A stretch of DNA of 32,000 bases from Acholeplasma laidlawii PG-8A (GTDB lineage: Bacteria; Bacillota_I; Bacilli_A; Acholeplasmatales; Acholeplasmataceae), in NCBI RefSeq assembly GCF_000018785.1, contig NC_010163.1:990001-1022000 (forward strand), written 5' to 3'. The translations under genes were made by a program, and so were the position numbers. Below, in pieces: positions 1-21,842 of the stretch. Every line of letters begins with the position of its first letter. The first letter of the stretch is position 1. The notes beneath the pieces were generated by a model, which saw only the letters and a list, made by a program, of their open reading frames with translations, was not told the DNA's origin and made no database searches.

Positions 1-301
1 GTCTCTCTGATTTACCAAACTCATTAATAATATCGGCAGCATCATCGGGCTCAAGATTTTGTACGACTAATACTTGTTCCTCTAAGCTTTGAGTTTGGAG
101 TAGTTCTGCTGCATGTTCCGGTTCTAGGTATGACAAAACATCAGCAAACTGCTCTGTAGGTAGAATTTGCTTTAATCTTTCTTGATATTCAGGTTTTAAT
201 TCTTTGAAGATTTCTACAATATCAAAACTGTGCATTTCTTCTAATGCTTGAAGGATATCCTTATCAGAAGCATCATTTAAAAGCATATCTTTAATATCCA
301 T
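1..301 (-). CDS. mgtE: Mg2+ transporter MgtE, N-terminal part (gene continues past the window start)
   Basis: Minus-strand reading frame open to the window edge, with ATG at 301-299. It is absent from the ORF track because it has no stop in the window. Translation MDIKDMLLNDASDKDILQALEEMHSFDIVEIFKELKPEYQERLKQILPTEQFADVLSYLEPEHAAELL...NLEPDDAADIINEF fits the MgtE N-terminal domain pattern. Confidence 0.6.
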   Translation of the reverse strand, partial: MDIKDMLLNDASDKDILQALEEMHSFDIVEIFKELKPEYQERLKQILPTEQFADVLSYLEPEHAAELLQTQSLEEQVLVVQNLEPDDAADIINEFGKSER

Positions 302-549
302 ATTTACACATCCCTTTAATTCTTCAACCGTTATTTTTATTACTAAAATTTGGTAAAGTCTTCTATTATCAATGATATCATTTTTAAGCCCCATTTGTCC
401 ATTATGCTGTATGATGTTATTTTTTTATTGTTCTATCTAGTTCGGTTCTTCTTTGTTATACAAAGGTTTAATAAAACGAGTGTAAATTTACATATTATTT
501 CGTCTTAGCATGTTAAAATAAATATAACAATACTTGAGAGGAAATTAAA

Positions 550-1497
550 ATGAATAAATCACAACAAAGTAGAATATTTGTTGCTAGCGCACTGTTCATA
601 CTACTGATAGCTGCTTCGTTTATTTTTGGAGCGACTGTTTTTATTGTGGGCGCACTGGCAATACTCACGTCTTTCGTGGTAGAAATACTTAGCACAAAAG
701 CTAGAAAAGAAACTTTTGATTGGACAAGTTTCTGGATCACACCACTTGTTATTACACTACTTACAACACCAACGATCATTGATCAAGTTTGGATGGTAAG
801 TATTGCTACAGCATTTGGGGTATTCTTTGCAAAATCCATATGGGGTGGGCAAGACAAGAACGTATTTAATCCAGCCATGGTTGGATTAATCTTCATTGCA
901 CTTGCATTTCCAATTTATGTTAATAATTTTCTAGAACCAGTATCTGGTTTGGCTTCTCCTCAGACTTTAGCTACAATCTTTAAAAATAGTCCAGGGCAAA
1001 TCATGACTACCTATTCCTTATGGGATGTCTTACTAGGAAACTATGCTGGAGCAATCGGTACTACATTTAAGTTGGGTATCATTATATTAGGTTTACTCAT
1101 GATGGTTGTAAGAATATCTGATTGGCGTATTCCACTAACCTTTGTAGGTACATATTTTGTATTATCACTCATCAATGGTTTTACAAAAACAGGTGTTAAT
1201 CCATTTATGTATGCAACTTACTCTATTTTAATGGGACACTTAATGTTTGCTGTCATGTTTGTTTCTACAGACCCACAAACTGCACCATTATACAATAAGG
1301 GTAAATTCATCTATGGAATTGGATTAGGATTTATCACTTGGATTATTCAAAATATTTGGGTTTTCAATCCTCTTGCACCAAATACTGAAGGTATTATCTA
1401 TTCTGTAACATTCATGAATGCTGTTGTAGGCTTAATTGATGTATGGACTGTACCTAAAGTAAAAGATATTCCTAACCTCGAGGAGGTAGCTATATGA
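550..1497 (+). CDS. nqrB: NqrB/RnfD-family polytopic membrane subunit of an Nqr/Rnf-type redox pump (short form, 315 aa)
   Basis: Family-typical motifs are present: SIWGGQDKNVFNPAM and LLGNYAGAIGTTFKLGIIILGLLMMVVRISDWRIP. There are many hydrophobic segments. RBS GAGAGGA lies upstream of ATG 550, and there is an ATGA overlap with the next gene. Confidence 0.8.
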   Translation: MNKSQQSRIFVASALFILLIAASFIFGATVFIVGALAILTSFVVEILSTKARKETFDWTSFWITPLVITLLTTPTIIDQVWMVSIATAFGVFFAKSIWGGQDKNVFNPAMVGLIFIALAFPIYVNNFLEPVSGLASPQTLATIFKNSPGQIMTTYSLWDVLLGNYAGAIGTTFKLGIIILGLLMMVVRISDWRIPLTFVGTYFVLSLINGFTKTGVNPFMYATYSILMGHLMFAVMFVSTDPQTAPLYNKGKFIYGIGLGFITWIIQNIWVFNPLAPNTEGIIYSVTFMNAVVGLIDVWTVPKVKDIPNLEEVAI

Positions 1498-3464
1498 AAA
1501 AATATATTAGTATGTTAAGTTTCGTTCTTATCATGGGTATTGTATCTTCTGTTATTTTAATGGGTGCAGATATGATCACACGTGATAGAATTGCTAAAAA
1601 TGCAGAATATGCTTGGAAAACAGCTATATTAACGCATCATAATGTTGATTATACTGATGCAAACTTCGACGAAGTATTTCTAGAAACTTTTGAAGAAAGA
1701 ACTGCAGAAGACACTAATGGTAAGACAAGATACTTATATGTTCATAACCAAACTGGTGCAGTGAGTTATCAGTTCAGCGGTGGTGGCTTATGGGATACCA
1801 TAGCTGGTGTTATTACATTAGAAAGTGATTTCCAAACAATTGTTCAAATCACTGTTACTAAACAAGGAGAAACTCCAGGTTTAGGTGGTATTGTTGCAGA
1901 AAAACCTTATCTAGATAATTATGCTGGTAAGAAATTTGATGAATCCTTAGGGTTGGTGGCTGTTAAATCAGAACCTACTACAGATTATGAAGTAGATGCA
2001 ATTACCGGTGCTACTGGTACTTCTAATGCTTTTGTTGGTCTATTAAGTGTTGAATACCGCACTATGTTAGGTTTATTTGGAGATGTAAATCCATTATCCG
2101 TTGCTATGAAAGCTATTATGACTCATAATGATGTCGAGTTTACTGGCGAAAACTTTGAAAATGTATTTGCTCAAAACTTCGAAACAAATACAATCGATGA
2201 ATTAACACTATATACTCACAAAGTAAATGGCAACGTAAGTTTCACATTTACTGCTGGCGGATTTAACGGTCCAATTGATGCAGTTGTGACACTTGATCCA
2301 CTATTCGAAACAATTCTAGGTATCAAAGTACTTTCTCAATCAGAAGGTTGGGGCGCAGTTATTCAAACAAACCCAGCAGTATTAGAATACTTTGTAGGTA
2401 AGAAATTTGCACCTGACTTCGAATTATCTGATGATTTTGATGGTTTCGGTGGTGCTACAACGACTAGAAAGAATTTCGTATTAGGACTTAATGAAGCAAG
2501 AGATTTATATTATTCAATCTTTATTGATGGTGTAGATCCAAACATGGTTTGGAAACAAGCCCTTCTAACTAATAATGGTATTACTTCTACTGAAGCAGAT
2601 TATAAGACATTATTCAATCAAACATTTACTGTTGAAACACAAGGTGATTTAACACTTTATAGAAATAACGCAGACCAAAATATTAGTATGTTATTTGAAA
2701 CAGACGGTTTTGGTGGTGTTATTAAGGGTGTATTAACACTTGAAAATGATTTTTCAACAATTGTTTATATTACAATTTATCAACAATCCGAAACTTGGGG
2801 AGCTCGTATCCAAAATAACGCGGAATTCTTTGATGCTTATGTAGGTAAGAAGTTTGCTCCAACTATCTCATTTGTAGAAACTCCAGCAACCGATTCTGAA
2901 ATCGTTGATGGTTATGGTGGTGCAACTACAACTAAAGGCGCTATGCTTGAGATATTAAATTCAGTACGTGATACATATTACACTGCGTTCTTCGATCCAA
3001 ACATGGTTTGGAAAAAAGCAATGCTTGCAAATAACGGTGTTGAATCTACTGACTTAAATTATGAAACATTATTTGATACAACATTTAATGTAGAAACTTC
3101 TGGTGACTTAACATTATATACAAATAAGACAAATCAAAATGTAAGTTTCACATATGAAACAACAGGTTTTGTAGGTGACATTAAAGGTGTTATAACACTA
3201 GCTAGTGATTTTGAAACAATTGTTCGTATCAGTGTTTATGAACAACATGAAAAATGGGGTGCACGTATTCAAACAACCCTAACATTCTTTGATGCTTATG
3301 TTGGTAAGAAATTCTCACCAACAATCTCATTTGTAGAAACACCAACAACAGATTCTGAAATTGTTGATGGTTATGGTGGAGCTACTACAACTAAGGCTTC
3401 TATGTTAAACATTTTAAATGAGACAGTAGCAGCATACAAATTAGCATTTGCGGTGGAGGCATAA
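1494..3464 (+). CDS. nqrC: NqrC/RnfG-family subunit: N-terminal membrane anchor plus four tandem FMN-binding ectodomain modules (656 aa)
   Basis: N-terminal TM helix ISMLSFVLIMGIVSSVILMG. Module 1 has the canonical GETPGLGG and DAITGATGTS flavinylation-type motifs. Three further modules carry DGFGGATTT or DGYGGATTT. RBS GAGGAGG is at about 1480-1486. Confidence 0.8.
   Translation: MKKYISMLSFVLIMGIVSSVILMGADMITRDRIAKNAEYAWKTAILTHHNVDYTDANFDEVFLETFEERTAEDTNGKTRYLYVHNQTGAVSYQFSGGGLWDTIAGVITLESDFQTIVQITVTKQGETPGLGGIVAEKPYLDNYAGKKFDESLGLVAVKSEPTTDYEVDAITGATGTSNAFVGLLSVEYRTMLGLFGDVNPLSVAMKAIMTHNDVEFTGENFENVFAQNFETNTIDELTLYTHKVNGNVSFTFTAGGFNGPIDAVVTLDPLFETILGIKVLSQSEGWGAVIQTNPAVLEYFVGKKFAPDFELSDDFDGFGGATTTRKNFVLGLNEARDLYYSIFIDGVDPNMVWKQALLTNNGITSTEADYKTLFNQTFTVETQGDLTLYRNNADQNISMLFETDGFGGVIKGVLTLENDFSTIVYITIYQQSETWGARIQNNAEFFDAYVGKKFAPTISFVETPATDSEIVDGYGGATTTKGAMLEILNSVRDTYYTAFFDPNMVWKKAMLANNGVESTDLNYETLFDTTFNVETSGDLTLYTNKTNQNVSFTYETTGFVGDIKGVITLASDFETIVRISVYEQHEKWGARIQTTLTFFDAYVGKKFSPTISFVETPTTDSEIVDGYGGATTTKASMLNILNETVAAYKLAFAVEA
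1602..3452 (+). repeat. In-frame tandem array of four RnfG/NqrC-ectodomain modules (about 1602-2087, 2088-2534, 2535-2993, 2994-3452)
   Basis: Recurrent landmarks appear in each module: WK.A.L..(H/N)N, LTLY, (Q/E).SE.WGA or GETPGLGG, Y.GKKF, and D....GAT. Modules 3 and 4 both start with GATCCAAACATGGTTTGGAAA and are 459 nt apart. They remain clearly alignable at the DNA level. Confidence 0.8.
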
Positions 3465-3465
3465 T

Positions 3466-4125
3466 ATGGAAAACAATCAATCAATCTTACCTAAACCAAG
3501 TCGCTGGTTAAGACTCCAATACAAAAAATGGTTTCTCATACTTAAAAATGGTATTTCAGAAGAAAACCCAATTATTGTCTCAGTATTAGGTATCTGTTCA
3601 GCACTTGCTGTTACAAATAGAGTAGAAAATGCAATCGTCATGGGTATTGGTGTTACATTCGTTATCATGGCTTCTTCTATGATGGTCTCTATGATGCGTA
3701 ATCTCATCCCTTCAAAGGTACGTATGGTAGCTTTCATGGTTATTATTTCAATGTTTACTATCGTAGTTCAAATGTTCTTACAAGCATTCCTACCTGTAGT
3801 TGCTGCAAACCTTGGTGCATATACTGGTTTAATTATCACAAACTGTATTGTTATGGGTAGAGCAGAAGCATTTGCTATCAAAAATCCTGTTAAATATACT
3901 ATTATTGACGGTTTTGCTAACGGTATGGGTTATACCTTAGTATTAATTGCAATCGCTGCAGTTCGTGAGCCTTTAGCATTTGGAACATTCCTTGGTATGA
4001 GTATCCCTGGTTTTGATAACTGGATTAACTGGAACGTTATGGCGTTAGCACCTGGTGGTTTCTTCGTATTAACCTTATTAGCATGGTTAGTGCGTACATT
4101 AACCAAGAAATATGAAGAAGCGTAG
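3466..4125 (+). CDS. nqrD: NqrD/RnfE-family membrane subunit
   Basis: Start moved from the track's TTG 3448 to ATG 3466, which has RBS GGTGGAGG at 3452-3459 and lies just after the TAA of the previous gene. Motifs LGICSALAVT and GLIITNCIVMGRAEAF are typical of the NqrD/RnfE family, including its two conserved Cys. Confidence 0.85.
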   Translation: MENNQSILPKPSRWLRLQYKKWFLILKNGISEENPIIVSVLGICSALAVTNRVENAIVMGIGVTFVIMASSMMVSMMRNLIPSKVRMVAFMVIISMFTIVVQMFLQAFLPVVAANLGAYTGLIITNCIVMGRAEAFAIKNPVKYTIIDGFANGMGYTLVLIAIAAVREPLAFGTFLGMSIPGFDNWINWNVMALAPGGFFVLTLLAWLVRTLTKKYEEA

Positions 4126-4138
4126 GAGGAGATAAAAC

Positions 4139-4723
4139 ATGGAATTAATTGAATTATTCTTAGCATCAATACTATCAAATAACATCGCCTTGATCTTCAT
4201 TTTAGGGATGTGTTCATTAATCGCTGTATCTACATCCATTAAAAACTCCGTCAACATGGGTGTTGCAGTTATCTTTGTTGTTACAATCACAGCTATAATT
4301 AACTGGCCAATTTATGAATTACTTAAAGCAACTGGTACAGAACAATTAGCATTATTAGTATTTATTATTGTTATTGCAGCATTTGTACAATTCTTAGAAA
4401 TGTTCTTAGCTAAATATTTTCCAAAGATTTACGAATCATTTGGTATATTCTTACCACTAATTACTGTTAACTGTATCGTATTATCTGTATCACTGTTTTT
4501 CCAACAAAGAAATTATGACTTCTTACAAACAACCGTATTTGCATTCGGTTCTTCAGTTGGTTGGACATTTGCAATGATCTTACTTGCAGGTGTTAGACAA
4601 AAAATGTACCGCGTATCTAACCTTCCAAAAGGTTTACGTGGTCGCGCGATTGCATTCTTAATTTTAGGGATCTTAGCATTAGCATTCATTGGCTTTACCG
4701 GTATCGGTAGAGTGTCATTTTAG
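4139..4723 (+). CDS. nqrE: NqrE/RnfA-family membrane subunit
   Basis: Motifs ILGMCSLIAVS, FVQFLEMFL and LPLITVNCIVLS are typical of NqrE/RnfA. RBS AGGAGGAG lies upstream. Confidence 0.85.
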   Translation: MELIELFLASILSNNIALIFILGMCSLIAVSTSIKNSVNMGVAVIFVVTITAIINWPIYELLKATGTEQLALLVFIIVIAAFVQFLEMFLAKYFPKIYESFGIFLPLITVNCIVLSVSLFFQQRNYDFLQTTVFAFGSSVGWTFAMILLAGVRQKMYRVSNLPKGLRGRAIAFLILGILALAFIGFTGIGRVSF

Positions 4724-4732
4724 GAGGAAACT

Positions 4733-5809
4733 ATGGATCCATTATATACACCAATAATTCTTATTGGTTTACTCATCGTTGTTACACTTGTAGTTATCTT
4801 AGTTGATAAATTACTCGGTGGTGGTGGTGAACGTAAAATCACTGTTAATAAAGATAATGTCATTACAATCTCTGGTAGAGAAACAGCATTAAATGCATTA
4901 ACTAATAATAAAATTTTCTTACCTTCTTCTTGTGGTGGTAAAGCTACTTGTGGTACATGTAAATTTAGATTAGTTGACTGGCATGAAGCTCCAAAACCTA
5001 CAGAAATACCATTCTTATCAAAAGATGAAATTAGCGAAGGCGTTCGCTTATCATGTCAAGTGGTTGTCACTGAAGACATGCAAGTTGAAGTACCACCTTC
5101 CGTATTAAATGTTAAACCTTTCTATGGTAAAGTCGTTGAAGTTGAGCAATTAACACACGATATTAGACGTATTAAATTCGAAATGAAAGAAGATTTCGTA
5201 TTCAAACCAGGACAATACTTACAAATCGAAGTACCTGGTATTGAAACAACGAGAGCATACTCTATTGCATCAAATCCAAATGATTTAAGACACCCTGAGG
5301 TAATTATTCGTTTAGTACCAGGCGGTGTTGCAACTAAGTTTATTCATAAAGCTTTAGTTATAGGCGATACATTAAAAATTACAGGTCCATTTGGTGACTT
5401 CTTCTTACAAGAAGAGTCTACTCGCCCAATCATTATGATTGCTGGTGGTTCTGGTAAAGCTCCAATTCGTTCAATTATCTATAAATTAATTGAACAAAAC
5501 ATGCCAAGAAAAGCACAATACTTCTTTGGTGCAAGAACTAAAAAAGATTTATATTATACTAAAGAATTCAAAGATGTTGAAGCGATGTATCCAAACTTCA
5601 AATATATTCCAGCTTTATCTACACCACTTCCAGAAGATGAGTGGGATCTAGATATCGGTCTTATTACAGAAGTTGTTGCAAGACACACTGGTGATCTAAG
5701 TGGTCACGAAGCATATCTTTGTGGATCTCCTGGTATGATCGATGCATGTATTAAAGTATTAAGAGAAAAAGGTATGCCTGAAGAACATATCTACTTCGAT
5801 AAATTCTAA
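4733..5809 (+). CDS. nqrF: NqrF-type NADH-oxidising subunit (TM anchor, 2Fe-2S ferredoxin domain, FAD/NAD(H) reductase domain)
   Basis: N-terminal TM helix. Cys67-x5-Cys73-x2-Cys76-x31-Cys108 (SSCGGKATCGTCKF...RLSCQV). RAYSIAS is the FAD RxYS motif, GGSGKAPIRS the NAD-binding motif, and YLCGSPGMIDA the C-terminal motif. RBS AGGAGGAA lies upstream. Confidence 0.85.
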   Translation: MDPLYTPIILIGLLIVVTLVVILVDKLLGGGGERKITVNKDNVITISGRETALNALTNNKIFLPSSCGGKATCGTCKFRLVDWHEAPKPTEIPFLSKDEISEGVRLSCQVVVTEDMQVEVPPSVLNVKPFYGKVVEVEQLTHDIRRIKFEMKEDFVFKPGQYLQIEVPGIETTRAYSIASNPNDLRHPEVIIRLVPGGVATKFIHKALVIGDTLKITGPFGDFFLQEESTRPIIMIAGGSGKAPIRSIIYKLIEQNMPRKAQYFFGARTKKDLYYTKEFKDVEAMYPNFKYIPALSTPLPEDEWDLDIGLITEVVARHTGDLSGHEAYLCGSPGMIDACIKVLREKGMPEEHIYFDKF

Positions 5810-5813: not shown

Positions 5814-5846
5814 AAAGGTGAGCTTAATGCTCACCTTTTTATTTTA
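5814..5846 (+). terminator. Rho-independent terminator of the nqr-like operon
   Basis: Perfect 10-bp stem AAAGGTGAGC/GCTCACCTTT (5814-5823 / 5829-5838) with loop TTAAT, followed by a TTTTTATTTT tail. It begins 5 nt after the nqrF stop. Confidence 0.7.
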
Positions 5847-5896: not shown

Positions 5897-6538
5897 TCAT
5901 TTTTGACTATCTAATTGTTTTTTTAAGATAAGATCTTTAGATTTCATGATACGTATTGTATTAGATAATTCTGCCTCGTTAATTTTCATTCGAACAACTT
6001 TAATGTCTTCCATAATTTCAGGAATTAGAATATGTTCAATCGCGTTTACACGGCGCTTAGTCTTTTCAATTTCTCTTATCAAGATACGGACTCTTTTATC
6101 CATTGCAGCAAGTTCAATAAACTTATCTAAATTACTTGCTAGATTTAGGACAATATCATCTAATATTGGATGTGTACCATGAAATGAGTACGTGATTTGA
6201 GGCTTTATAGTTTCTTTAATCTCAATTTTAGGTACTGTAACACTCATGACGGACTCTTTTTTATATTCAAGTTCTAGCGTTGTTGCAGGTACTAGAAATT
6301 TTTCACGTAATTCAGATTCATAATGAAACGCTTTAGCACTATCATACTTATCTAAGGCATCCAACCATTTATCTTCAACAAGCGTGCGTAAGACTTTATA
6401 TTGTTCAACCAGTTTTAAAAATTGGCGCATCATCTCATCTTGTTTATCCTTTAAAAGACGATGTCCCTTTCTTGTTGTAGCTAGTTGATTTTTTAATCTT
6501 GTAAGCTCCATTCTTGTTGCATTAGCGATATTTGGCAT
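5897..6538 (-). CDS. ntpD: V/A-type ATPase subunit D (central stalk)
   Basis: N-terminus ATRMELTRLKNQLATTRKGHRLLKDKQDEMMRQF matches the conserved V-type D pattern. It is the last gene of the ntp-like operon. Confidence 0.85.
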   Translation of the reverse strand: MPNIANATRMELTRLKNQLATTRKGHRLLKDKQDEMMRQFLKLVEQYKVLRTLVEDKWLDALDKYDSAKAFHYESELREKFLVPATTLELEYKKESVMSVTVPKIEIKETIKPQITYSFHGTHPILDDIVLNLASNLDKFIELAAMDKRVRILIREIEKTKRRVNAIEHILIPEIMEDIKVVRMKINEAELSNTIRIMKSKDLILKKQLDSQK

Positions 6539-6543
6539 TGAAA

Positions 6544-7923
6544 TTACTCCTTAACTTTGTAGTATTTATCTAAGCGTTTATTAGAAATACGTTTCAATTC
6601 AGATCTTGGTAGAATATTTAATAATTTCCAACCTAGATCAAGTGTTTCTTCGATAGTTCTATTGGATTCATATCCTTGAGATAAGTATTCTTTTTCAAAC
6701 TTATCTGCAAATACTGCATAGAGTTTATCTGTATCAGATAATGCAGATTCACCGAGTACAGTTGCTAATTCTTTAGCTTCTTTACCACGTGCATAACTTG
6801 CAAATAATTGGTTTAATGTATCAGAGTGATCATCTCTTGTTTTACCTTCACCAATACCTTTATCTTTTAGACGAGATAAAGATGGTAAAACATCCACTGG
6901 TGGTTGTATACCTTTTTGATGTAAGCTTCTAGATAAAATAACTTGACCTTCTGTAATATATCCTGTTAAGTCAGGAATTGGGTGGGTCTTATCATCTTCT
7001 GGCATGGTAAGGATAGGTAATTGCGTAATAGAGCCTTTTTTGCCCTTTACACGACCTGCACGCTCATATAAAGACGAAAGGTCAGTATACATATAACCAG
7101 GGTAACCACGACGTCCTGGCACTTCTTTTCTCGCTGCTGAAATTTCTCTTAAGGACTCTGCATAGTTTGTAATATCAGTCATGATAATTAAAACGTGCAT
7201 ATCTAATTCATAAGCTAAATACTCAGCTGCTGTAATTGCCATACGAGGGGTTGCAATACGTTCAACTGCCGGGTCATTTGCAAGGTTTACAAACATGACT
7301 GTTCTATCGATTGCACCTGATTTTTTAAATTCCTCAATAAAGAAGTTTGACTCTTCAAATGTAATACCAATTGCAGCAAATACTACTGCAAAGTTATCCG
7401 TTGTACCAACAACTTTTGCATTTCTAGCAATCATTGCAGCTAGTTTATTATGAGGTAGTCCTGATCCTGAAAAGATTGGTAATTTTTGTCCACGAACAAG
7501 TGTATTTAATCCATCAATGGATGAAACTCCTGTTTGAATAAACTCAGATGGATAGTCTCTAGCTACCGGGTTTAGTGGTATACCATTAATATCCATTTTC
7601 ATTTCTGGAATGATTTTACCTTTACCATCTTTAGGTTCACCCATACCACTAAAGATACGGCCTAAAATGAGTGGAGATAAATCAAGTTCTAAACCATGAC
7701 CTAAGAATACTGCTTTAGCATCTTCTATTTTTAATCCTTGACTGGATTCAAATAATTGAACTAACGCTTTATCTTGATCAATTTCTAGGACACGCCCATA
7801 TCTGGTCGTACCATTAGCTAGTTTAACACGCACTGTTTCATCATACTTAACATTTTCAGTATGTGTTACAAGCATTAAGGGTCCAACGACTTCTTTGATT
7901 GTTTTATATTCTCTATTCGACAT
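6544..7923 (-). CDS. ntpB: V/A-type ATPase subunit B (non-catalytic)
   Basis: Alpha/beta ATPase fold motifs without a canonical P-loop lysine box: [60 protein letters not shown]. Confidence 0.95.
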
Positions 7924-7927
7924 CGTT

Positions 7928-9688
7928 TTACTCCTTTCTTAAACCGCTAAATTGTTGATGCATCTCTTTAACGACCTCTTCATATGTGTTTAGCATATCT
8001 TTTTCTTCAACATACTTAAAGCGTCCAATTTGTTCTTTCACAGCTAAGCGTTCAATATCTTTAAAAGACATTTCATGTTCAATTGCGTGAACTGCTAAGT
8101 CGTTAAATAAAATAATCATATCTAATAATCTAAATTGTTTATCTAATGATGAGTACGTATCAATTGGATCAAATGCATTTTGATGTAAATAGTCTTCACG
8201 AATCATTTGAGCTACTAATAATTTTAAACGATCTGATGCACCTAGTGAATCTACCCCTACAAGTCTTACAATTTCTTGGAGTGAAGCTTCTTCTTGTAAA
8301 AGCGTTGAAACAAAACTTACATGGTGTGTCCAATTTTTATCTACATTTGTGTTAAAGAAGTCTCTAATCTGTTCATCGTATAATGAATAAGATTTTAACC
8401 AATCAATTGCAGGGAAGTGACGTCTATATGCAAGTGATGCAGATAAGCCCCAAAACACTTTAACAATTCTTAGAGTTGCTTGTGATACTGGTTCTGATGT
8501 ATCCCCACCTGGAGGGGAAACAGCTCCAATAGCGGTAATTGCACCAGTTCTTGCCTTTGAACCAAGTGTTTCAACTAAACCTGCACGTTCATAGAATTCT
8601 GCAATTCTTGAACCTAAATAAGCAGGATAACCTTCTTCACCTGGCATTTCTTCTAATCTTGAAGACATTTCACGTAAGGCTTCAGCCCAACGTGATGTAG
8701 AGTCCGCCATAATAGCTACTTTATAGCCCATATCTCTAAAGTATTCAGCAATTGTAATACCTGTATAGATACTAGCCTCTCTCGCAGCAACTGGCATGTT
8801 TGAGGTGTTTGCGATTAATACAGTACGTTTCATAAGTGGCTGCCCTGTTCTAGGATCTTTTAATTCAGGGAACTCCATAAGTACGTCAGTCATCTCATTT
8901 CCACGTTCACCACAACCAATGTACACAATAATATCTGCATCAGCCCATTTTGCTAATTGGTGTTGAACTACAGTTTTTCCACTACCAAAAGGTCCAGGGA
9001 TTGCTGCAATACCACCGATAGCAATCGGGAATAACGTATCAATAACACGTTGTCCTGTAACCATTGGTTGCGTTGGTGCTATTTTTTTATTATATGGTCT
9101 TTTAATACGTACTGGCCATGATTGCATCATCTTAAGTGGTAAGATGTCGCCATCATGATCTAGTTCACATACAGTATCAACCACTGTAAATTCACCGGAT
9201 TTGATTGACTTTACAGTACCACTTAGATTTGGTGGAACCATAACTTTATGAACTACAGATTCCGATTCATGAACAATACCAATAATATCGCCACCTTCTA
9301 CAATATCCCCAACCTCAACTTGTGGTATAAATTGCCATAGCTTTTCTCTATTTAATTTAGGGATATCAACACCCAGTGGAATACCTTGTCCATGGATTTG
9401 ATAAATACTATCCAGTGGTCTTTGAATACCATCAAAAATACCACCGATCAAACCAGGTCCAAGTTCAACACTTAATGGTTCATTTGTTAAAAATACAGGT
9501 TCACCTGGTCCAATACCAGCAGTTTCTTCATAAACTTGAATCGATGCTAGATCACCACGTAATTCTAAGACTTCACCAATTAATCTTTTGTCAGAAACTC
9601 TAACAACATCATAAACTTGAGCTGAACCCATGTTTTTAGCAACAATTAATGGACCTGATACTTTAGTTATAATACCTTGATTTGTCAT
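7928..9688 (-). CDS. ntpA: V/A-type ATPase catalytic subunit A
   Basis: Walker [10 protein letters not shown], plus GCGERGNEM and [26 protein letters not shown]. The start is probably ATG 9688 ([14 protein letters not shown]), 9 nt after AAGGAG. The track's ATG 9706 (ATGA overlap with the upstream gene) remains possible. Confidence 0.95.
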
Positions 9689-9702
9689 TTTTTCATGCTC
9701 CT

Positions 9703-10008
9703 TCATATAATTGAAATCCCAATTGATTTTTCAACAAGTAATTTCAATTCGGATAATGTATCTTCATGTTTTAAACCACTTGGTAGTTTTAAAAATATAG
9801 GATACATAGACTCTTCATATTTCTCTAATAAAGTTTGAACATAAGCCTCACTAACTGCATCATAGATGATAATTTTACTATCACTTGATGCATATTTGGC
9901 AATATGTTCTTCTACATTCTTCAAGTCATTATCAACATAGACGGTTACACCCACACTACGTAGAATAATGAATGACTCATTCGTACTACATGCAACTATT
10001 TCTGGCAT
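9703..10008 (-). CDS. ntpG: V/A-type ATPase subunit F (E. hirae NtpG position)
   Basis: About 100 aa, located directly upstream of A as in ntpFIKECGABD. Assigned mainly by size and synteny. Confidence 0.6.
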
Positions 10009-10015
10009 AATTCAT

Positions 10016-10939
10016 CTACTCCTTAATTTGATAATACTTTTCTTTTAATACACGCATTTCATCTCTTTTTAAAATTGTATAGTGAAGTACTGTTGCAAAA
10101 CCTAAACTTTGGAAACTCAAATCTTCTAAAAGATTTTGTCTGTAAACATTGAATGCATCATTTAATATATCTAAGAAGTTTGGCTTACCTACATATTTAA
10201 ATGCATCAGTTAAAGTCACATCAAAGTGAAGACTTAAATACTGTCCTATTTCAGTAAGTGATTTGTCAAACAATTCCATTAGAATATGTTTATCAATCAT
10301 ACCACCACTTAAGATATTCATTTCTAAATATTCTATATTTTTATTGTATTTGATGCTTCTTATCAGTAACATCACATTCAAGATAGTCGTTTCTAATTCA
10401 ATATATTTTTTGATATAATTATCTGTTTTTTTGTTGAATGAAGTTATGATTCTATCATGTAATATTTTAATCACTCTATCAGAAATACCTTGTGCATCTA
10501 ATTGAGTTGTCTCTGATTTTATGTGATCTAAAAACGAAATGTCTTCTAAATCAAGTAAACCAGATACTCCATTTAAAATATAATCTTCATATCTTTCTTC
10601 ATGAAAGTTACTTAAACTATCTGTAAACTTATTATAAGTTAATCCTAGGTGATAGGATTTCATTAGGTTTGATAAAAACAGATGATCAAATGTTAAATAT
10701 AACACTTTAAAGATGAGATGATCTTTATCCATTAAAGATTCTAAGAATTGACGATGTTTTAATTCTTCTTCTAACATAATGCTGTCAATATTCGTTTCAC
10801 TGGCACGACCATATTGGTGTGTTTTAAGCAAACTTAAAAAATCTTTTCTAGATATATTTTCAAAACTCTTTAAATGGCTTGGTGATAATAAGTGATCCAT
10901 AGATCCACTCATTACACCACTAACAAATGAAATATCCAT
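10016..10939 (-). CDS. ntpC: V/A-type ATPase subunit C (d-like)
   Basis: 307-aa helical protein between the E-like and F-like genes. Assigned by size and synteny with the E. hirae ntp operon. Confidence 0.6.
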   Translation of the reverse strand: MDISFVSGVMSGSMDHLLSPSHLKSFENISRKDFLSLLKTHQYGRASETNIDSIMLEEELKHRQFLESLMDKDHLIFKVLYLTFDHLFLSNLMKSYHLGLTYNKFTDSLSNFHEERYEDYILNGVSGLLDLEDISFLDHIKSETTQLDAQGISDRVIKILHDRIITSFNKKTDNYIKKYIELETTILNVMLLIRSIKYNKNIEYLEMNILSGGMIDKHILMELFDKSLTEIGQYLSLHFDVTLTDAFKYVGKPNFLDILNDAFNVYRQNLLEDLSFQSLGFATVLHYTILKRDEMRVLKEKYYQIKE

Positions 10940-10941
10940 TA

Positions 10942-11547
10942 TTAATTTAACGCCTCATATATAGTTTTTTCATACTTTTTAGTTAGACTCTCAAGTAAAT
11001 TTTCAAATGAAAAGTTTAAGTCATATAGTTTACCTACAAGCATAAATCCTGATTCGATTTGTGCTGGTGTATGGCTTAATTTTAACTGATAGTCTTTACC
11101 TAATTTTTGATTTAATAGATCTGCTTCGACTAAGTCACCCTTCTTAGTTGTTAGAATACTTTGATACATTGCGTATTCTTTCTTATTTACTTGAATTTCT
11201 TCTGTTTTATCAATAGCTTGGTTTTGAATAGAACGTACTACATAATTAAAGTAGTCTTCTTTGTTTAAATGCTTTAATTCTTCTTTTAATGCTGTAAAGA
11301 TGGATTCAATCAGCTGTTGTTTAGATATAGCGACTTCATCTCTTAATGCACGTATACCTTCTTGTTTAGCTTGTTCAACTTGTGCCTTAGCTTTCTGTTG
11401 TGCTTTATGAAGTTGAACTTCTAAATCAGCTTTTGCTTCCTCAATTAATCTATGTTTAAGTGCTTCAGACTCATGCTTAGCACTTAAATTTATAGATTCA
11501 ATAATTGACTGACCTTTTTGTATTATTTTCTCTTCTAATTTTGACAT
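10942..11547 (-). CDS. ntpE: V/A-type ATPase subunit E (peripheral stalk)
   Basis: 201 aa. The N-terminal half is a charged, coiled-coil-like region rich in A/K/E/Q, and the C-terminal half is globular. The gene follows K as in ntp operons. Confidence 0.6.
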   Translation of the reverse strand: MSKLEEKIIQKGQSIIESINLSAKHESEALKHRLIEEAKADLEVQLHKAQQKAKAQVEQAKQEGIRALRDEVAISKQQLIESIFTALKEELKHLNKEDYFNYVVRSIQNQAIDKTEEIQVNKKEYAMYQSILTTKKGDLVEADLLNQKLGKDYQLKLSHTPAQIESGFMLVGKLYDLNFSFENLLESLTKKYEKTIYEALN

Positions 11548-11557
11548 AATAGCCTCT

Positions 11558-12049
11558 TTAAGCAGGTAATTGTGTCCACATTAAGATGGATACAAGTAAT
11601 GCTAAGATCGCATAAGTTTCTACTAAGGCTGTCATTGTAATCCCACGTGTTGAGATCTCTGGTCTTTTACCTGTCATTAAAATAGATGCAGCTGACATTT
11701 TACCTTGGTAAATAGCTGATACTAAACCAACAAGTGCAATTGGTAATGCTGCTGCAAAATACATTTGACCTTGCATTTCTGTTAATGCGATTGGTGAACC
11801 TGTTAACCAACCCATTCTAACTAATAATAATACTGCAACTAAGAATCCATAAATACCTTGTGTACCTGAAAGTGCTTGTAATACTAAAACCTTACCGAAC
11901 AAATCTGGTTTTTCACTTAATACTCCTGTTGCTGCTCTACCAGCAATAGAAACCCCCATCGCTGAACCAATACCTGCTAAACCTGCTGCTAAGGCAACTC
12001 CCATGAGTGCCCAAGTTAAACCGTCAAATGACATAAAAATGAATGGCAT
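11558..12049 (-). CDS. ntpK: V/A-type ATPase proteolipid subunit K (double-hairpin, 4 TM)
   Basis: 163 aa. LQALSGTQGIYGFLVA, IYQGKMSAA and ALVETYAILALLVS closely parallel E. hirae NtpK LQLLPGTQGLYGF / IAQGKVAAA / MVETYAILGF. Confidence 0.9.
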   Translation of the reverse strand: MPFIFMSFDGLTWALMGVALAAGLAGIGSAMGVSIAGRAATGVLSEKPDLFGKVLVLQALSGTQGIYGFLVAVLLLVRMGWLTGSPIALTEMQGQMYFAAALPIALVGLVSAIYQGKMSAASILMTGKRPEISTRGITMTALVETYAILALLVSILMWTQLPA

Positions 12050-12053
12050 ATTT

Positions 12054-13961
12054 TTAATTCTCCTTATTAATTTCTTTATTTTCTTTTAAATTGACTTGAT
12101 AAACATATTTTAATTGTAGGCTAAATGGTTCAAATAAGTAACCGCCGCCTTCAAAGAATTTTCCGTAAAACTCTAGATATTGTAAACGCCCTGCGTGTAC
12201 ATATGCAGATAACATACCCATAATAAAGTTAAATACGTGCCCTATTAAGTAAATTATGATACCTAATAATATACCTAATACAGGAATAGAACCCCATACC
12301 ATTTCACCTAGTAAGTTCATTGTATAAGCAATAACTGCAGTGGATAGGGATAATGCTAAAATTCTAGAGTAACTTAAGATATCTGATAAGTAACTTGTTG
12401 AGTTATATAGTCCAGCAATAGCTGAAACTATTTTTCCTGGTATAGATTTTTGTTCTCTACCATTTAATAAAATGATAATCAGTACACCTAATCCCATGAG
12501 TACATAAGATGTGTAAAGTAAAATATTTTGAATTAAGCTCTCTAGCGGGATAAACGTTGCTGTTATAAATAGACTTAATCCTACTAGGATAAATATCCAT
12601 GAACCTGCATCATTAAGGCCACCTAAGATATCTTTTTGTCGATAACTGTTAATAAGTTTCAGTATTAAACCGTGTACGATATGCACAACACCCAAAATAA
12701 GTGAAATGATTAACATCGGAACCGGATCATTTATCGGATCTAATAATGGAGTGAAGATGGTTGCTCCAAAGAAGGATCCAAATAATATACCTGCACCTAT
12801 TGAAGTGACACCTGAATAACAAAATATTTTAACCAAATCTTTTGTTGCACCTCTTAGTTTTCCAAATTTGAGTAATAAACCAAATGCAACAATCATCACA
12901 AGCCCATAACCAATATCTCCCATCATGATACCAAAGATTAACCAGTACCAAAAACTCATAGATGGGTTCGGGTCTACTTCAGAAGCAGATGGTGTTGAAA
13001 ATTGGTTGGTAATATATTCATAAGGTTTAACAAATCCATTATTCTTTAACGCTGTAGGCACCGACTCGTCTGAAAGTGCATCACGTGCTTCTAATTCAAA
13101 AACAAAGTTCTTATCATTTAATATTGTCTTGATGTCTTCTACTTGATCACCTCTAACCCAACCTTCTACATAGACTGTTGTTTCAGTACTTAAAAGTTCA
13201 ATTTGTAATTTTGATTCTTTACTTAAGAGTTGGTCATGTAAAAGTTTTAGTCCACCTAAATCTTTACTAGAATCGATAAAGAATTGTTCTGTTTCCTTCA
13301 TTTCTTTTTCAATGGATTCTAATTCGGAATTTAAGTCAGTAATCACTTCCATATTTGTCTTATCATAGTTTCTATTAGGTTCAATATTAAAATCCATGGA
13401 TTCTAGTAAATCTTCTAATCTATCACTTTGATCTTTATCAATCAAGATAGAAACATAATGATAATTATCATCACTACTTAAAATATCTACATATGCCCCT
13501 AAAGTATCCATGTGACCTTTAAATGCATCATACTTTTCTTTTTGGATAAATCCTAATACGACTTGTGTAAATCTTAAGGTTTCAATTCTTGATTGACTTA
13601 CACTTAAATTTTTATATGGTAAAAGTTCCTCATATTTTTCTTTTAAGGACTTTTGAGTTTCTTGTAACTTATAATATGTATTTTGCAAATCTAATATATT
13701 TGCTGCAAGTTCTAAGCTATGTTGATCTAAGAGTTCAAATTCAGACTTTGTAACAATCGCGTTATTACCCGTAGATTTTTTTAAATATCTTTCAATAATT
13801 TCAATAGCTTTACTCACGCGAATTAAATCTTCTGAAGGTGTAACTGATTTAAAATGCTTTTTATCAGGCATAAAAAGGGCATGCATTTGAAGTTCATTCA
13901 AAATTTGCTCCTTATCACTTTCTAGAAAAATTAATTTTACTTTTTGCATTGAAACGATCAT
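12054..13961 (-). CDS. ntpI: V/A-type ATPase subunit I (a-like stator/ion channel)
   Basis: 635 aa, with a soluble coiled N-terminal half and a polytopic C-terminal half. It contains SYSRILALSLS and HAGRLQYLEFYGKFFEGGG. ATGA overlap with the upstream gene. Confidence 0.85.
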   Translation of the reverse strand: MIVSMQKVKLIFLESDKEQILNELQMHALFMPDKKHFKSVTPSEDLIRVSKAIEIIERYLKKSTGNNAIVTKSEFELLDQHSLELAANILDLQNTYYKLQETQKSLKEKYEELLPYKNLSVSQSRIETLRFTQVVLGFIQKEKYDAFKGHMDTLGAYVDILSSDDNYHYVSILIDKDQSDRLEDLLESMDFNIEPNRNYDKTNMEVITDLNSELESIEKEMKETEQFFIDSSKDLGGLKLLHDQLLSKESKLQIELLSTETTVYVEGWVRGDQVEDIKTILNDKNFVFELEARDALSDESVPTALKNNGFVKPYEYITNQFSTPSASEVDPNPSMSFWYWLIFGIMMGDIGYGLVMIVAFGLLLKFGKLRGATKDLVKIFCYSGVTSIGAGILFGSFFGATIFTPLLDPINDPVPMLIISLILGVVHIVHGLILKLINSYRQKDILGGLNDAGSWIFILVGLSLFITATFIPLESLIQNILLYTSYVLMGLGVLIIILLNGREQKSIPGKIVSAIAGLYNSTSYLSDILSYSRILALSLSTAVIAYTMNLLGEMVWGSIPVLGILLGIIIYLIGHVFNFIMGMLSAYVHAGRLQYLEFYGKFFEGGGYLFEPFSLQLKYVYQVNLKENKEINKEN

Positions 13962-14266
13962 TTTGATATTACCTCTTTTTTAAGTAATTCCAAATATTTA
14001 GATGTTACATCTTTATAGTCGGTTTCAATTTTTTGGTGTAGTTTATTTTTAGCTACATCATTTTCTTTGGTGATTGCCTCTACTTCTAAATCAGCTTCTT
14101 TTTGTAATTGATTCAACTTTTCAAGTTGTGCTTGTTTAAGTGTATCAATTACTTGTTTTGCTTCTAATCTAGCTTTTTCTAGCATGGCTTCTTTTTCTTT
14201 TCTTGCATTTAAAATATCTTGCTCTACTTGATTTTCTAATGCAATGATTGCTTCTAGCTTGCTCAA
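13958..14266 (-). CDS. ntpF: V/A-type ATPase small coiled-coil stalk subunit (E. hirae NtpF / subunit G-like)
   Basis: 102-aa, highly charged, coiled-coil-like protein at the first position of the operon. TTG start at 14266, 6 nt after AAGGAGGA (14273-14280). Confidence 0.5.
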   Translation of the reverse strand: MSKLEAIIALENQVEQDILNARKEKEAMLEKARLEAKQVIDTLKQAQLEKLNQLQKEADLEVEAITKENDVAKNKLHQKIETDYKDVTSKYLELLKKEVISK

Positions 14267-14890
14267 ATGCCGTCCTCCTTTATGTATACTTCTCTTTTTT
14301 ATAAATATTTAATCACTTTAATCATTGTAATAAATAAGATGGTGCCTTCTAAACCCTTTATAAATATTGCAATTTTTTCGTCGTAATACATTTCGTTAAT
14401 CGAGTTTTTGCACATCTTTATAGTCAAGTTACTATTACCTTATATTTAATTCAATACGCTTTATTTAGTTCAATTTGTCATCTCATTAAACCATTTATTT
14501 TCATAAGGATACACATGTTTATAAAACATAGTTTTGACCTTCCTTGACTTTTAAAAAATCGTCTCATATGATTTATATTTTAAGATGAATTTTTTGAATT
14601 GTTCTCTCGTTAATCATTGTATCACGTATATAATAATATGGTTTTTATAATGCAATTACATAAGTATCAAATTAATTTACGCATTATCCTTCTCCACCAT
14701 AAAAAGTAGTTATTTTCCTTGTATATGCACCAGTTTATTGTGTGAATTGCTTTCTTTGTTTACAAGTGCACAAATTTAATATCACCAATTTATATACCAA
14801 AACTATTTTAACATATTTATGGAGGTTTTTCATTTAAAATCGGAAAGTTTATTACATAAATTACATCTTCGTATGTAGTTAATTTAAATA

Positions 14891-14935
14891 AAAATACCCT
14901 TAAAACTGAGTTTTTCATCAATCTTTAAAGGGTAT
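14891..14935 (-). terminator. Rho-independent terminator of the F1Fo atp operon
   Basis: Arms ATACCCTT-AAA (from 14894) and TTTAAAGGGTAT (14924-14935). The minus-strand tail is TTTTATTTAAATT. The hairpin starts 8 nt after the atpC stop. Confidence 0.55.
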
Positions 14936-14942
14936 TTCATGT

Positions 14943-17569
<2,627 letters not shown>

Positions 17570-17570
<1 letters not shown>

Positions 17571-19075
17571 TAGATAAATCTCCTTACGTGATCTATAAAT
17601 AATTCCATTAATGCCTTATCTTTAATTGCCTTATGTTCAACAAGTTCTTTTCTAAGTTTTTTACCAGTTTCATTTAAAGATAAACCTTGTTCGATTTCAG
17701 CCATTAAAGACCTGATTTGTTTTAGGTTTAAATCATCCATAAAGCCATTTTCTAGTGCATAGAATGTTACAATTTGACTTGGCATATCAATGAGTTCATG
17801 AACATCTTGTTTTAAGATTTCAACTGTCTTACGTCCACGGTCTAAACGACGCTTAGAACTTGGGTCTAAGTCTGAACCAAATTGTGCAAAACTTTCTAAC
17901 TCTCTAAAGTTAGCCAGTGAGATACGCAAGGTTCCAGCAACTTGTTTCATCGCCTTCCACTGAGCACTACCTCCTACACGTGATACGGATAACCCTGCAT
18001 TAATTGCAGGTCTTACCCCTTGGTAGAACAGTTTTTGTTCTAAGTATAATTGTCCATCTGTAATACTAATTATATTGGTTGGAATGTAGGCACTTATATC
18101 TCCTGCTTGTGTCTCAACAATTGGTAATGCAGTAATTGAACCACCACCATGTTCCTTACTTAATTTCCCAGCACGCTCTAAAAGTCTTGAGTGCAGATAG
18201 AAAATATCTCCAGGATATGCTTCACGTCCACTTGGGCGTTTCATTAATAAAGATAATTCTCTATATGCTACAGCATGTTTTGATAAATCATCATAAATAA
18301 TTAATACATCTTTACCTTGTTCCATAAAGTACTCAGCAATCGATGAACCTGTATATGGCGCAATGTAAAGTAATGTTGCTTCTTTAGATGCCCCAGCATT
18401 GATAATCACTGTATAATCCAGTGCATCTTTAATTTGTAATAATTTGACTAGATTGGCAATCGTTGAGTCTTTTTGTCCGATAGCAACATACACACAAATA
18501 ACGTTTTTACCACGTTGATTAATAATTGTATCTATGGCAATTGTAGATTTTCCAGTTTGTCTATCCCCAATAATTAATTCTCTTTGTCCTTTTCCAATTG
18601 GAACAAGTGCATCAATTACTTTGATACCTGTATGAAGTGGTTCATTTATAAATCCACGGTGCATTAAGTCTTTTGCAGGGCGTTCAATCGGATAGTATGC
18701 ATCAGCATTAATAGTACCTTTAAGGTCCAGTGGATTGCCTAGTGGATCTACAACTCTACCAAGTAGGTCTTCACCTACTGGTACTTCAAATATCTTTTTA
18801 GTGGCACGAACGTTATCCCCTTCTTTAATGAGATCAGTACGTCCAAATAAGATAATACCTACATGAAACTGTTCTAAGTTAAACACGAGTCCTTTAACAT
18901 CATGAGGTAGTTCAACAAGTTCCCCTAGAATAGCCTGGCTTAAACCATAAACGGTTGCAATACCATCTGCTACGCTTAAAACTTTACCAATACTTTCTAG
19001 TCGGACGTCAGCTTTATAGTCTTCAATTTGTTTTTGTATAAGTGCACCAATTTGGTCAATATCAATTTTAGCCAT
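17570..19075 (-). CDS. atpA: F1 ATP synthase alpha subunit
   Basis: Walker A GDRQTGKST, plus VYVAIGQK, LIIYDDLSKHAVAYRELSLLMKRPSGREAYPGDIFYLHSRLLERA. Confidence 0.95.
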
Positions 19076-19089
19076 GTGATCATCCTTTC

Positions 19090-20129: not shown

Positions 20130-20140
20130 AATTTATCCTT

Positions 20141-20401
20141 TTACTTACTTGATAATATAAATGCAATAATTAATGCATAAATACCAGAAGTTTCTACCAT
20201 CGCTTGACCTAAAATCATGGTCACTGTAATTTTACCACTTGCCTCTGGTTGGCGGCCTACAGCCTCAACCGCACGTGCAGCAGCCAGCCCTTGTCCAATA
20301 CCTGCTAAACCAGCAGCCAAAATGGAAATACCAGCGCCTAAGTATGCTAAACCTGTAGCAAAAAATTCAGTTTGTGTCATTATTTGAAAGAATGTATTCA
20401 T
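20141..20401 (-). CDS. atpE: Fo ATP synthase subunit c (rotor ring)
   Basis: 86-aa hairpin with GLAGIGQGLAAARAVEAVGRQPEA loop region and LGQAMVETSGIYALIIAFIL. Confidence 0.9.
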   Translation of the reverse strand: MNTFFQIMTQTEFFATGLAYLGAGISILAAGLAGIGQGLAAARAVEAVGRQPEASGKITVTMILGQAMVETSGIYALIIAFILSSK

Positions 20402-20402
20402 G

Positions 20403-21692: not shown

Positions 21693-21746
21693 GTTATCAC
21701 CACTTGTTTAAGTCTTATTTATAAAAAATAGTTATTTCTTATTTAA

Positions 21747-21775: not shown

Positions 21776-21842
21776 ATGATTTGTCTAATATGTTATTAAT
21801 CTTTATATTGATACTAAATGCCTTATAGTAAGCCATTAAACA

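Follow-up and report, generated by a model that had tools for sequence, protein, structure and literature searches.

By what route do electrons leave a redox complex that resembles Na+-NQR in its subunits B to F but has no NqrA? Two branches of an ancient family of redox-driven Na+ pumps are known, the RNF and the NQR complexes; the BCDEF operon, first noted in 2014, is a widespread third arrangement, with an NqrF input and no A/C output subunit. The architecture itself is already known from genome papers published since that year: NqrA-less nqrBCDEF operons were noted in Thermotoga thermarum and P. lettingae (PMC4148951), and are on record for Clostridium ultunense and Alkaliphilus metalliredigens (PMC5924567) and for A. 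palmae and 'Ca. Izimaplasma' ZiA1 (PMC6256511). No biochemical study of an NqrA-less nqrBCDEF complex was found in the literature searched. Here we analyse the operon of Acholeplasma laidlawii PG-8A, which occupies nucleotides (nt) 550-5809 of a 32,000-nt stretch of the chromosome (contig NC_010163.1, positions 990,001 to 1,022,000, forward strand), referred to below as the window.

Two features set this operon apart. Its C subunit carries four modules that bind flavin mononucleotide (FMN), and the flavinylation motif of its B subunit is degenerate. We propose, as an evenly balanced judgement, that the operon encodes an NADH-driven Na+ pump from which electrons exit along a chain of extracellular flavins, with O2 or some other external compound as acceptor.

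Results

Gene content and the multi-module C subunit

Five tightly packed genes on the + strand encode subunits B to F of an RNF/NQR-family complex (Table 1). Pfam assigns NQR2_RnfD_RnfE to B, four copies of FMN_bind to C, Rnf-Nqr to both D and E, and Fer2, FAD_binding_6 and NAD_binding_1 to F. No NqrA/RnfC-like open reading frame (ORF) was found in the operon or in the window by translation and Pfam search, and the operon includes no RnfB-type subunit, the NqrF-type gene holding the last position. The original prediction had described an operon without nqrA, rnfC or rnfB genes, and the ORFs and Pfam matches verify that description.

The C subunit begins with one transmembrane helix (aa 3-29), its sole hydrophobic segment, followed by four complete NqrC/RnfG-like modules that score 227-263 bits each against the module hidden Markov model (HMM); an NqrC or RnfG is normally 200-260 aa long. 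Each module ends in an ApbE motif, D-x-x-[TG]-G-A-T, with a threonine predicted to be flavinylated. Of the four, module 1 most resembles NqrC. Modules 3 and 4 share 64% protein sequence identity and correspond to a repeat detected in the gene by Tandem Repeats Finder; judged by this similarity, they are a recent tandem duplication. The AlphaFold model of C (predicted local distance difference test 78.8, predicted template-modelling score 0.55) repeats one helix/strand pattern four times, and its best fold matches are V. cholerae NqrC and RnfG. The single transmembrane helix and the homology to NqrC/RnfG predict an extracytosolic location. With four such domains, C would fall among the multi-flavinylated proteins, which are defined by at least two FMN_bind domains, each with an ApbE motif. 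The operon had originally been portrayed as a 'stripped-down' pump; that portrayal missed the multi-module C subunit, and we have dropped it because C is enlarged.

The B subunit and its flavinylation motif

The B subunit matches PF03116 (E=1.3e-55) and has the length of RnfD, the N-terminal ~100 aa of NqrB being absent. It scores 142 against the rnfD model TIGR01946 (cut-off 207) and 137 against the NqrB model NF003756 (cut-off 414). Its best match in the PDB is RnfD (7zc6_D, 104.7 bits), while V. cholerae NqrB gives 78 bits. Because the latter alignment covers only residues 122-399 of the 415-aa NqrB, the shortfall is N-terminal, which bears out the earlier estimate, made by eye, that B is about 100 aa short mainly at that end. 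The G140/G141 pair of NqrB aligns with S41/F42 of B. In NqrB the N-terminal region belongs to the quinone pocket, and G140/G141 mark the quinone/inhibitor site. At the flavinylation position B has Thr139 (nt 964-966), in a motif that reads GLASPQT as against D-x-x-S/T-G-A-T in NqrB/RnfD; the threonine is kept, and the D and A positions are not. The original prediction had not noticed this degeneracy.

Covariation of the B motif and C module number

One genome per species was scanned, which gave 80 loci labelled by homology. About 55 of them share the B-C-D-E-F operon, in Acholeplasmatales, Izemoplasmatales, Paracholeplasma, Peloplasma, Mariniplasma and metagenome-assembled genomes (MAGs) labelled Erysipelotrichaceae. 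The number of C modules ranges from 2 to 6 among close species. There are four modules in the window, L002 and L005, two in L007 (A. equifetale), three in L004 and L006, five in L003 (A. oculi) and six in L001; outside these, L051 (Mariniplasma) and L059 have three each. A protein search returned further C homologues of 361-1020 aa, all from Acholeplasmataceae relatives, and the target threonine is kept in every module of each homologue examined.

The B motif follows a complementary pattern. Most loci with a single-module C keep D-x-x-x-x-A-T-P-L in B. All loci of Acholeplasma sensu stricto have a degenerate motif in which the threonine is retained and the D and A positions are lost. The motif segment is wholly deleted, with the remaining operon intact, in seven loci of the Mariniplasma / 'Tenericutes MO-XQ' group (L033, L034, L038, L041, L044, L051 and L061) and likewise in protein P0041, and the motif is absent in L059 (Haploplasma). 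C is expanded (the window, L001-L007, L051 and L059) only where B has lost its motif, and all loci with an intact motif have a single-module C. This comparison of sequences is suggestive of a connection between the two changes.

Two proteins join the B and C families in one chain. Protein P0123 (801 aa) consists of a motif-deleted B followed by a three-module C, and could be either a genuine B-C fusion or a gene call that reads through; P0073 (506 aa) also joins PF03116 and FMN_bind.

The membrane core and the NADH input module

The D and E subunits, both PF02508, are of the NqrD and NqrE type. D contains both [2Fe-2S] cysteines (LGICSAL, ITNCIVMG), scores 209 against the NqrD model NF006777 (cut-off 235) and matches V. 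cholerae NqrD (151.7 bits) better than RnfE (137.3) in the PDB. E also has both cysteines (LGMCSLI, ITVNC), and its best PDB match is V. cholerae NqrE (160 bits vs 134 for RnfA). The core motifs of both subunits are identical to those of V. cholerae NqrD and NqrE, including GIFLPLITVNC of E. In alignments to chains D and E of 7xk3 the four membrane cysteines fall on NqrD C29/C112 and NqrE C26/C120, and the retention of all four, proposed initially from the motifs, is thereby borne out.

The F subunit is of a short NqrF type, with a transmembrane anchor, a plant-type 2Fe-2S domain and domains for flavin adenine dinucleotide (FAD) and NADH. It carries Cys-x5-Cys-x2-Cys-x31-Cys, RAYSIAS and GGSGKAP, and in the alignment the four cysteines fall on C70/C76/C79/C111 of V. 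cholerae NqrF; Pfam and the alignment agree with the NqrF layout and the V. cholerae cysteine spacing first noticed by eye. F scores 240 against TIGR01941 (cut-off 295), its best PDB match is V. cholerae NqrF (171 bits), and it lacks two canonical NqrF insertions of 32 and 10 aa, as mapped by alignment. The parts needed for a Na+ half-cycle are therefore all retained: the NADH input of F, the D/E cluster and the FMN site on module 1 of C.

A third lineage of the family

All five proteins fall below the NCBIfam equivalog cut-offs for Nqr and Rnf alike. We built a neighbour-joining tree from concatenated D and E sequences (40 taxa, 387 columns, 200 bootstraps). All NqrF-bearing operons stand apart from RNF in 200/200 bootstraps, and the mollicute-type BCDEF clade is monophyletic in 200/200. 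This clade is sister to operons that combine an RnfC-like gene with BCDEF (167/200) and groups with canonical NQR in 1/200. In a paralogue-rooted tree the D half and the E half each independently give the same topology. On the strength of the D+E tree, the operon represents a third lineage and is neither a degraded canonical NQR nor an RNF; judged from these sequences, the lineage would derive most simply by loss of the RnfC-like subunit. The sub-threshold HMM scores and the position outside canonical NQR also uphold the earlier view that this is not an ordinary, already characterised Nqr subtype.

The operons with an RnfC-like gene were found at five loci (L050, L056, L060, L068 and L076) in Fibrobacterota, 'Ca. 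Darwinibacter', Omnitrophota and unclassified MAGs. In each, a gene with RnfC_N and 4Fe-4S domains precedes B-C-D-E and an NqrF-like gene, and there is no RnfB; in L060 and L076 the RnfC-like gene also has a Complex1_51K FMN domain. Four of the five (L050, L056, L060 and L076) are together sister to the clade of Acholeplasma type. These operons, with both an RnfC-like and an NqrF-like module, look like the intermediate postulated for the transition from RNF to NQR. A further locus, L053 (10921-12936), is a different partial RNF/NQR arrangement, with an RnfC/NqrA-like gene, B, a C with two motif-like sites, and a 456-aa ORF replacing D, E and F.

Within ±10 kb of the ~55 related BCDEF loci we found no ORFs for NqrA, RnfC, RnfB or ApbE. 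Nor is there a conserved sixth gene beside BCDEF, the downstream genes forming small unrelated lineage-specific groups; in L009 and L038 the neighbours are housekeeping genes. A conserved sixth gene 3' of F was considered and rejected; the downstream ORFs of ~150 aa have no Pfam match. In Clostridia-type BCDEF loci from Eubacteriales and 'Ca. Limiplasma' (L063 12397-12855; L069 13902-14369), a conserved ORF of ~152-155 aa lies 16 nt after F. It has no Pfam match, is absent in Acholeplasma and may be an extra subunit in this sub-lineage.

A second rnf cluster, ApbE and quinones

For the rest of the genome we relied on the published core table of four acholeplasmas (PMC4221730 supplement), which lists only genes common to all four species. 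According to this source A. laidlawii has a second cluster with ACL_0048 (RnfC), ACL_0049 (RnfD), ACL_0052 (RnfE) and ACL_0053 (RnfA-like). ACL_0050 is surface-anchored and is named subunit G in A. brassicae, and ACL_0054, a 'thiamine biosynthesis lipoprotein', is the orthologue of A. oculi ApbE. The stretch ACL_0048-ACL_0056 also holds a membrane protein resembling heptaprenyl-diphosphate-synthase component I, and the table names no RnfB (PMC4221730). The presence of an ApbE in the genome answers the requirement posed by four intact flavinylation motifs in C.

The rnf cluster ACL_0048-0054 is kept in all four acholeplasmas, while the window operon does not appear in the four-way core table. 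The original prediction depended on there being no nqrA, rnfC or rnfB gene elsewhere that co-occurs with the operon. An rnfC does exist elsewhere, but it does not specifically co-occur with BCDEF, since its cluster is present in all four species and BCDEF lies outside their core. Nor is ACL_0048 an orphan partner, because it sits among its own membrane subunits in an rnfC-D-G-E-A-apbE cluster.

Mollicutes are described as lacking quinones and cytochromes. The four-acholeplasma core table has no entries for naphthoate, isochorismate, prenyltransferase or cytochrome (PMC4221730 supplement). Peloplasma aerotolerans, in which quinones were not detectable (PMC11122141), carries a BCDEF operon (L036). 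The original prediction placed the electron exit away from the NqrA/NqrB quinone pocket; this is plausible given a B subunit without the NqrB N-terminal region, the alignment of G140/G141 with S41/F42, and the lack of detectable quinones in Peloplasma aerotolerans.

Operon boundaries and the sodium ATPase neighbourhood

Direct inspection of the gene junctions showed that the stop codon of B and the start codon of C overlap as ATGA (1494-1497) and that the remaining gaps are 1, 13 and 9 nt. GGAGG-type Shine-Dalgarno sequences precede all five starts by 6-10 nt. The ORF list begins D at TTG 3448; we prefer ATG 3466 because it fits the Shine-Dalgarno spacing. The first description of five co-directional, closely packed genes with an ATGA overlap, gaps of 1-13 nt and GGAGG ribosome-binding sites was accurate throughout, as were the boundaries it gave, a 248-bp non-coding region with a divergent mgtE on the left and a terminator on the right. 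The 248-bp region is presumed to contain the promoter. It holds no ORF of note, promoter-like matches in it are not above shuffle expectation, and an Rfam search gave no family there, either at the gathering threshold or at E<=1. A regulatory RNA in the leader, such as an M-box for mgtE or an FMN riboswitch, was rejected on this empty Rfam search.

Table 1. Features of the operon and its surroundings, in window coordinates (modules of C in residues of the protein).
Feature	Position	Strand	Details
Divergent mgtE, N-terminus	2-301	-	Pfam; neighbour listed as ACL_0964/0965
Intergenic region, mgtE to operon	302-549		248 bp
B-like gene	550-1497	+	315 aa, 34.8 kDa
C-like gene	1494-3464	+	656 aa, 72.3 kDa
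C FMN-binding module 1	aa 38-200		motif DAITGAT; T174 (nt 2013-2015) predicted flavinylated
C FMN-binding module 2	aa 201-349		motif DGFGGAT; T322 (nt 2457-2459) predicted flavinylated
C FMN-binding module 3	aa 350-504		motif DGYGGAT; T478 (nt 2925-2927) predicted flavinylated
C FMN-binding module 4	aa 503-656		motif DGYGGAT; T631 (nt 3384-3386) predicted flavinylated
Tandem duplication inside C gene (modules 3 and 4)	2535-3394	+	period 459 nt, 1.9 copies, 77% matches
D-like gene	3466-4125	+	219 aa counted from ATG, 24.2 kDa
E-like gene	4139-4723	+	194 aa, 21.5 kDa
F-like gene	4733-5809	+	358 aa, 40.0 kDa
Intrinsic terminator	5814-5846	+	hairpin 5814-5838, 10-bp stem, 5 G-C pairs, then T-run
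V-type ATPase operon	5897-14266	-	convergent with BCDEF; translations, Pfam
F-type ATPase operon	14943-21478	-	Pfam

Two complete ATPase operons follow on the opposite strand. The K subunit of the V-ATPase (11558-12049) shows a T-Q / Q / E pattern that resembles the Na+ site of Enterococcus hirae, and the c subunit of the F-ATPase (20141-20401) has the Na+-type signature Q...E-T-S-G-I-Y; one Na+ V-ATPase and a Na+ F1Fo ATPase have been predicted for A. laidlawii (Siewert et al., PMC4221730). The order of BCDEF followed by the V-ATPase recurs in A. oculi and other Acholeplasma loci. BCDEF and the back-to-back V- and F-type ATPase operons make up a 21-kb 'sodium energetics' block, a context that, as far as sequence can tell, fits a Na+ cycle.

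Other features of the window were noted in passing. Three small ORFs on the - strand have no Pfam match: 13958-14266 (102 aa) and 21101-21478 (125 aa), which stand first in the V-type and F-type ATPase operons, and 29163-29495 (110 aa). AT-rich non-coding gaps flank the F-type ATPase operon downstream and upstream (14267-14942, ~676 bp; 21479-21892, ~414 bp); the segment 14001-15000 has 26.5% G+C, and no Rfam family was found in either gap. Beyond them, again on the - strand, are a TldD/PmbA metallopeptidase pair (21893-24648) and two ABC exporter genes, each a fusion of ABC_membrane and ABC_tran (24584-28136), the first of which apparently overlaps the end of the TldD-like gene by ~65 nt if a GTG start is used.

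Discussion

The inventory of subunits allows us to consider how such a complex could work. In the Rnf complex of A. woodii, reduction of the RnfA/E [2Fe-2S] cluster binds Na+ on the cytoplasmic side and transfer of the electron to the FMN of RnfG releases it outside, RnfD only carrying electrons (PMC11889175). By analogy, this pumping mechanism at the A/E cluster is probably common to RNF and to the window complex. NADH would be oxidised at the cytoplasmic F subunit, its electrons passing to FAD and then to the 2Fe-2S centre. From there an electron would reach the intramembrane [2Fe-2S] cluster on the four D/E cysteines, whose reduction, as in Rnf, would bind cytoplasmic Na+; its transfer to the covalent FMN of C module 1, on the outer membrane face, would release the ion outside. 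Most electrons in Acholeplasma would then travel outward through the three additional FMN modules of C and not back via B. At the end of the chain they would reduce O2 to H2O2 or superoxide, or pass to a different acceptor outside the cell. Such a complex would act as a Na+-pumping NADH oxidase of the 'flavin-terminated' kind, feeding a Na+ cycle common to the neighbouring Na+-type V-/F-ATPases.

We infer the lack of a return through B because there is no NqrA or RnfC subunit, B is without the quinone-pocket region of NqrB, and its flavinylation motif has decayed. Since pumping in A. woodii Rnf ends at the RnfG FMN, an exit at C would leave the pump intact. An outward path has precedents: for RnfG subunits with several flavins, a branching of electrons towards extracytosolic acceptors has been proposed (PMC8238504), and a reduced three-FMN protein of the FMN_bind family (midpoint potential, Em, -184 mV) is reoxidised by O2 at 1.2 s-1 (PMC10339131). 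What we infer on these grounds is that the complex is coupled to Na+, that its electrons leave outward, that O2 accepts them and that it is the classical membrane NADH oxidase. Gene content makes the operon a good candidate for that long-known A. laidlawii enzyme, a link already raised in the original prediction, which had correctly guessed an Acholeplasma-like host. More tentatively, the U-shaped electron path may have been halved, with one crossing via D/E, exit by the four-flavin chain and a decaying B; the complex would then be the classical oxidase and the first respiratory Na+ pump to end in protein-bound flavins, without quinone or haem. The purified oxidase reportedly contains subunits of ~65, 40 and 19 kDa, flavin and Fe-S. 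The calculated masses of C (72.3 kDa), F (40.0 kDa) and E/D (21.5-24.2 kDa) would fit these; we treat this composition and the fit as a lead only and not as evidence.

Several observations weigh against an outward exit. The B subunit keeps N107 and D241, the equivalents of N123 and D249 in A. woodii RnfD, which hydrogen-bond riboflavin (PMC11889175), and when one residue of the ApbE motif is substituted, flavinylation falls by half but is not abolished (PMC12052999). With Thr139 kept as well, the B branch of A. laidlawii may for these reasons still be functional. An intact B motif and a single-module C occur together in most of the clade; the path through B is presumably the one taken in the ancestral BCDEF complex, and Acholeplasma may use it too. 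Only ~3 independent events connect the expansion of C with the loss of the B motif. What is more, it is not obvious why a cell without a wall should need a long-range flavin wire, FMN_bind domains are reoxidised slowly by O2, and the classical A. laidlawii enzyme reportedly contains copper, which nothing here explains.

These observations lead to the main rival, which we consider unlikely yet better placed than any other: an NQR-like U-turn in which electrons pass from F through D/E and C module 1 back into B (FMN, riboflavin) and on to a membrane quinone such as menaquinone, the extra C modules serving as a side branch or for storage. D, E and F are of the NQR type, the riboflavin-contact residues and the flavinylation threonine of B are conserved, and the B motif is intact in most relatives. 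NqrA would be dispensable in such a scheme because it carries no cofactor; it has no assigned catalytic role either (PMC12174285). On the other hand, B is without the N-terminal region and the G140/G141 pair of NqrB, and the site for its covalent FMN is deleted in several sister lineages that bear the operon. The supply of quinone is a further difficulty: mollicutes are described as having neither quinones nor cytochromes, the acholeplasma core table has no quinone-biosynthesis terms, and quinones were undetected in the operon-bearing Peloplasma (PMC11122141).

An improbable variant of the U-turn would pass electrons from the riboflavin of B to a soluble or peripheral cytoplasmic partner encoded elsewhere, the RnfC ACL_0048 or another acceptor, docking in the place of RnfC/NqrA. 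Besides the conserved riboflavin residues of B, the existence of an rnfC gene in the genome (PMC4221730) and the RnfC-like 4Fe-4S subunit adjoining BCDEF in the nearest sister operons speak for it. However, ACL_0048 has its own D, G, E and A subunits and is kept in four acholeplasmas in whose core table BCDEF is missing, an RnfC output coupled to an NqrF input would amount to a futile NADH-to-NAD+ loop, and no A/C-like gene lies near the ~55 BCDEF loci.

An ordinary Rnf complex, that is, a ferredoxin:NAD+ oxidoreductase, is what the database names imply: the NCBI entry identical to B (A. laidlawii, 100% identity) is called 'RnfABCDGE type electron transport complex subunit D', and B does have the length of RnfD and matches it marginally better than NqrB. 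We reject this reading on gene content and regard it as very improbable, because RnfB and RnfC are missing, the last gene is an NqrF-type NADH:2Fe-2S flavoprotein, D/E fall with the NqrF-bearing operons, away from RNF, in 200/200 bootstraps, and the genome has a separate rnf-type cluster. Least probable of all is a decaying remnant without function, for which the degenerate B motif and a subunit count one below NQR and RNF could be cited, against five intact ORFs with strong Shine-Dalgarno sequences, the retention of all cofactor cysteines and four C flavinylation motifs, and conservation across Acholeplasmatales, Izemoplasmatales and relatives.

Outward exit through C thus remains the reading we favour. 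In the Acholeplasma variants the outward flavin subunit has been multiplied 2-6x while the inward B site decays, which suggests a one-way outward path that still pumps Na+. If this is true, it would give a gene identity to the long-studied membrane NADH oxidase of A. laidlawii, explain how energy could be conserved from NADH oxidation in a quinone- and cytochrome-free organism, and provide a natural covalent flavin 'wire' on an ion pump. Names such as 'RnfABCDGE type subunit D' and 'FMN-binding protein' are misleading for a BCDEF operon. The literature searched gave no description of the four-module C, of a B flavin site that has decayed or disappeared in those lineages, of a third lineage sister to the operons with an RnfC-like gene and BCDEF, or of the Na+-ATPase neighbourhood.

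Comparison with known systems

With the Na+-NQR of V. cholerae the operon shares the B-C-D-E-F order, the NqrF-type input, the NqrD/NqrE cysteines and core motifs, and an NqrC-like first module of C. It differs in having no NqrA, a B that is 100 aa shorter, without G140/G141 and with a degenerate motif, a C with four FMN modules as opposed to one, and an F without two NqrF insertions. With the RNF complexes of A. woodii and Clostridium tetanomorphum it shares the membrane core, equivalent to D, G, E and A, and the length and N-terminus of B, which are those of RnfD. Unlike RNF, it has neither RnfB nor RnfC, takes its input from NADH via NqrF and not from ferredoxin, and has D/E sequences that separate from RNF in 200/200 bootstraps. 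The published NqrA-less operons, compared by gene content, consist of the same five genes. They were recorded as annotation remarks in which the acceptor is given as unknown, and none of the reports describes a multi-module C or loss of the B flavin site.

The C subunit resembles the multi-flavinylated proteins, RnfG among them (Meheust et al. 2021; Tong et al. 2023; PMC8238504, PMC10339131), in its tandem FMN_bind domains with ApbE motifs, its predicted extracytosolic location, the outward electron carriage proposed for them and the reaction of their reduced form with O2. What differs is the setting: in A. laidlawii the protein with several FMN modules belongs, as subunit C, to an NqrF-driven complex without an A/C output subunit. 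One-way flow of electrons from NAD(P)H to the outside has also been proposed for two-subunit 'NQR/RNF-like' systems, in which NqrB/RnfD is fused to an NAD-binding domain and accompanied by an FMN_bind protein (PMC8238504, PMC11334425). Because those systems have no D, no E and no separate F, they are without the [2Fe-2S] Na+-pumping core, whereas that core is present in the A. laidlawii operon.

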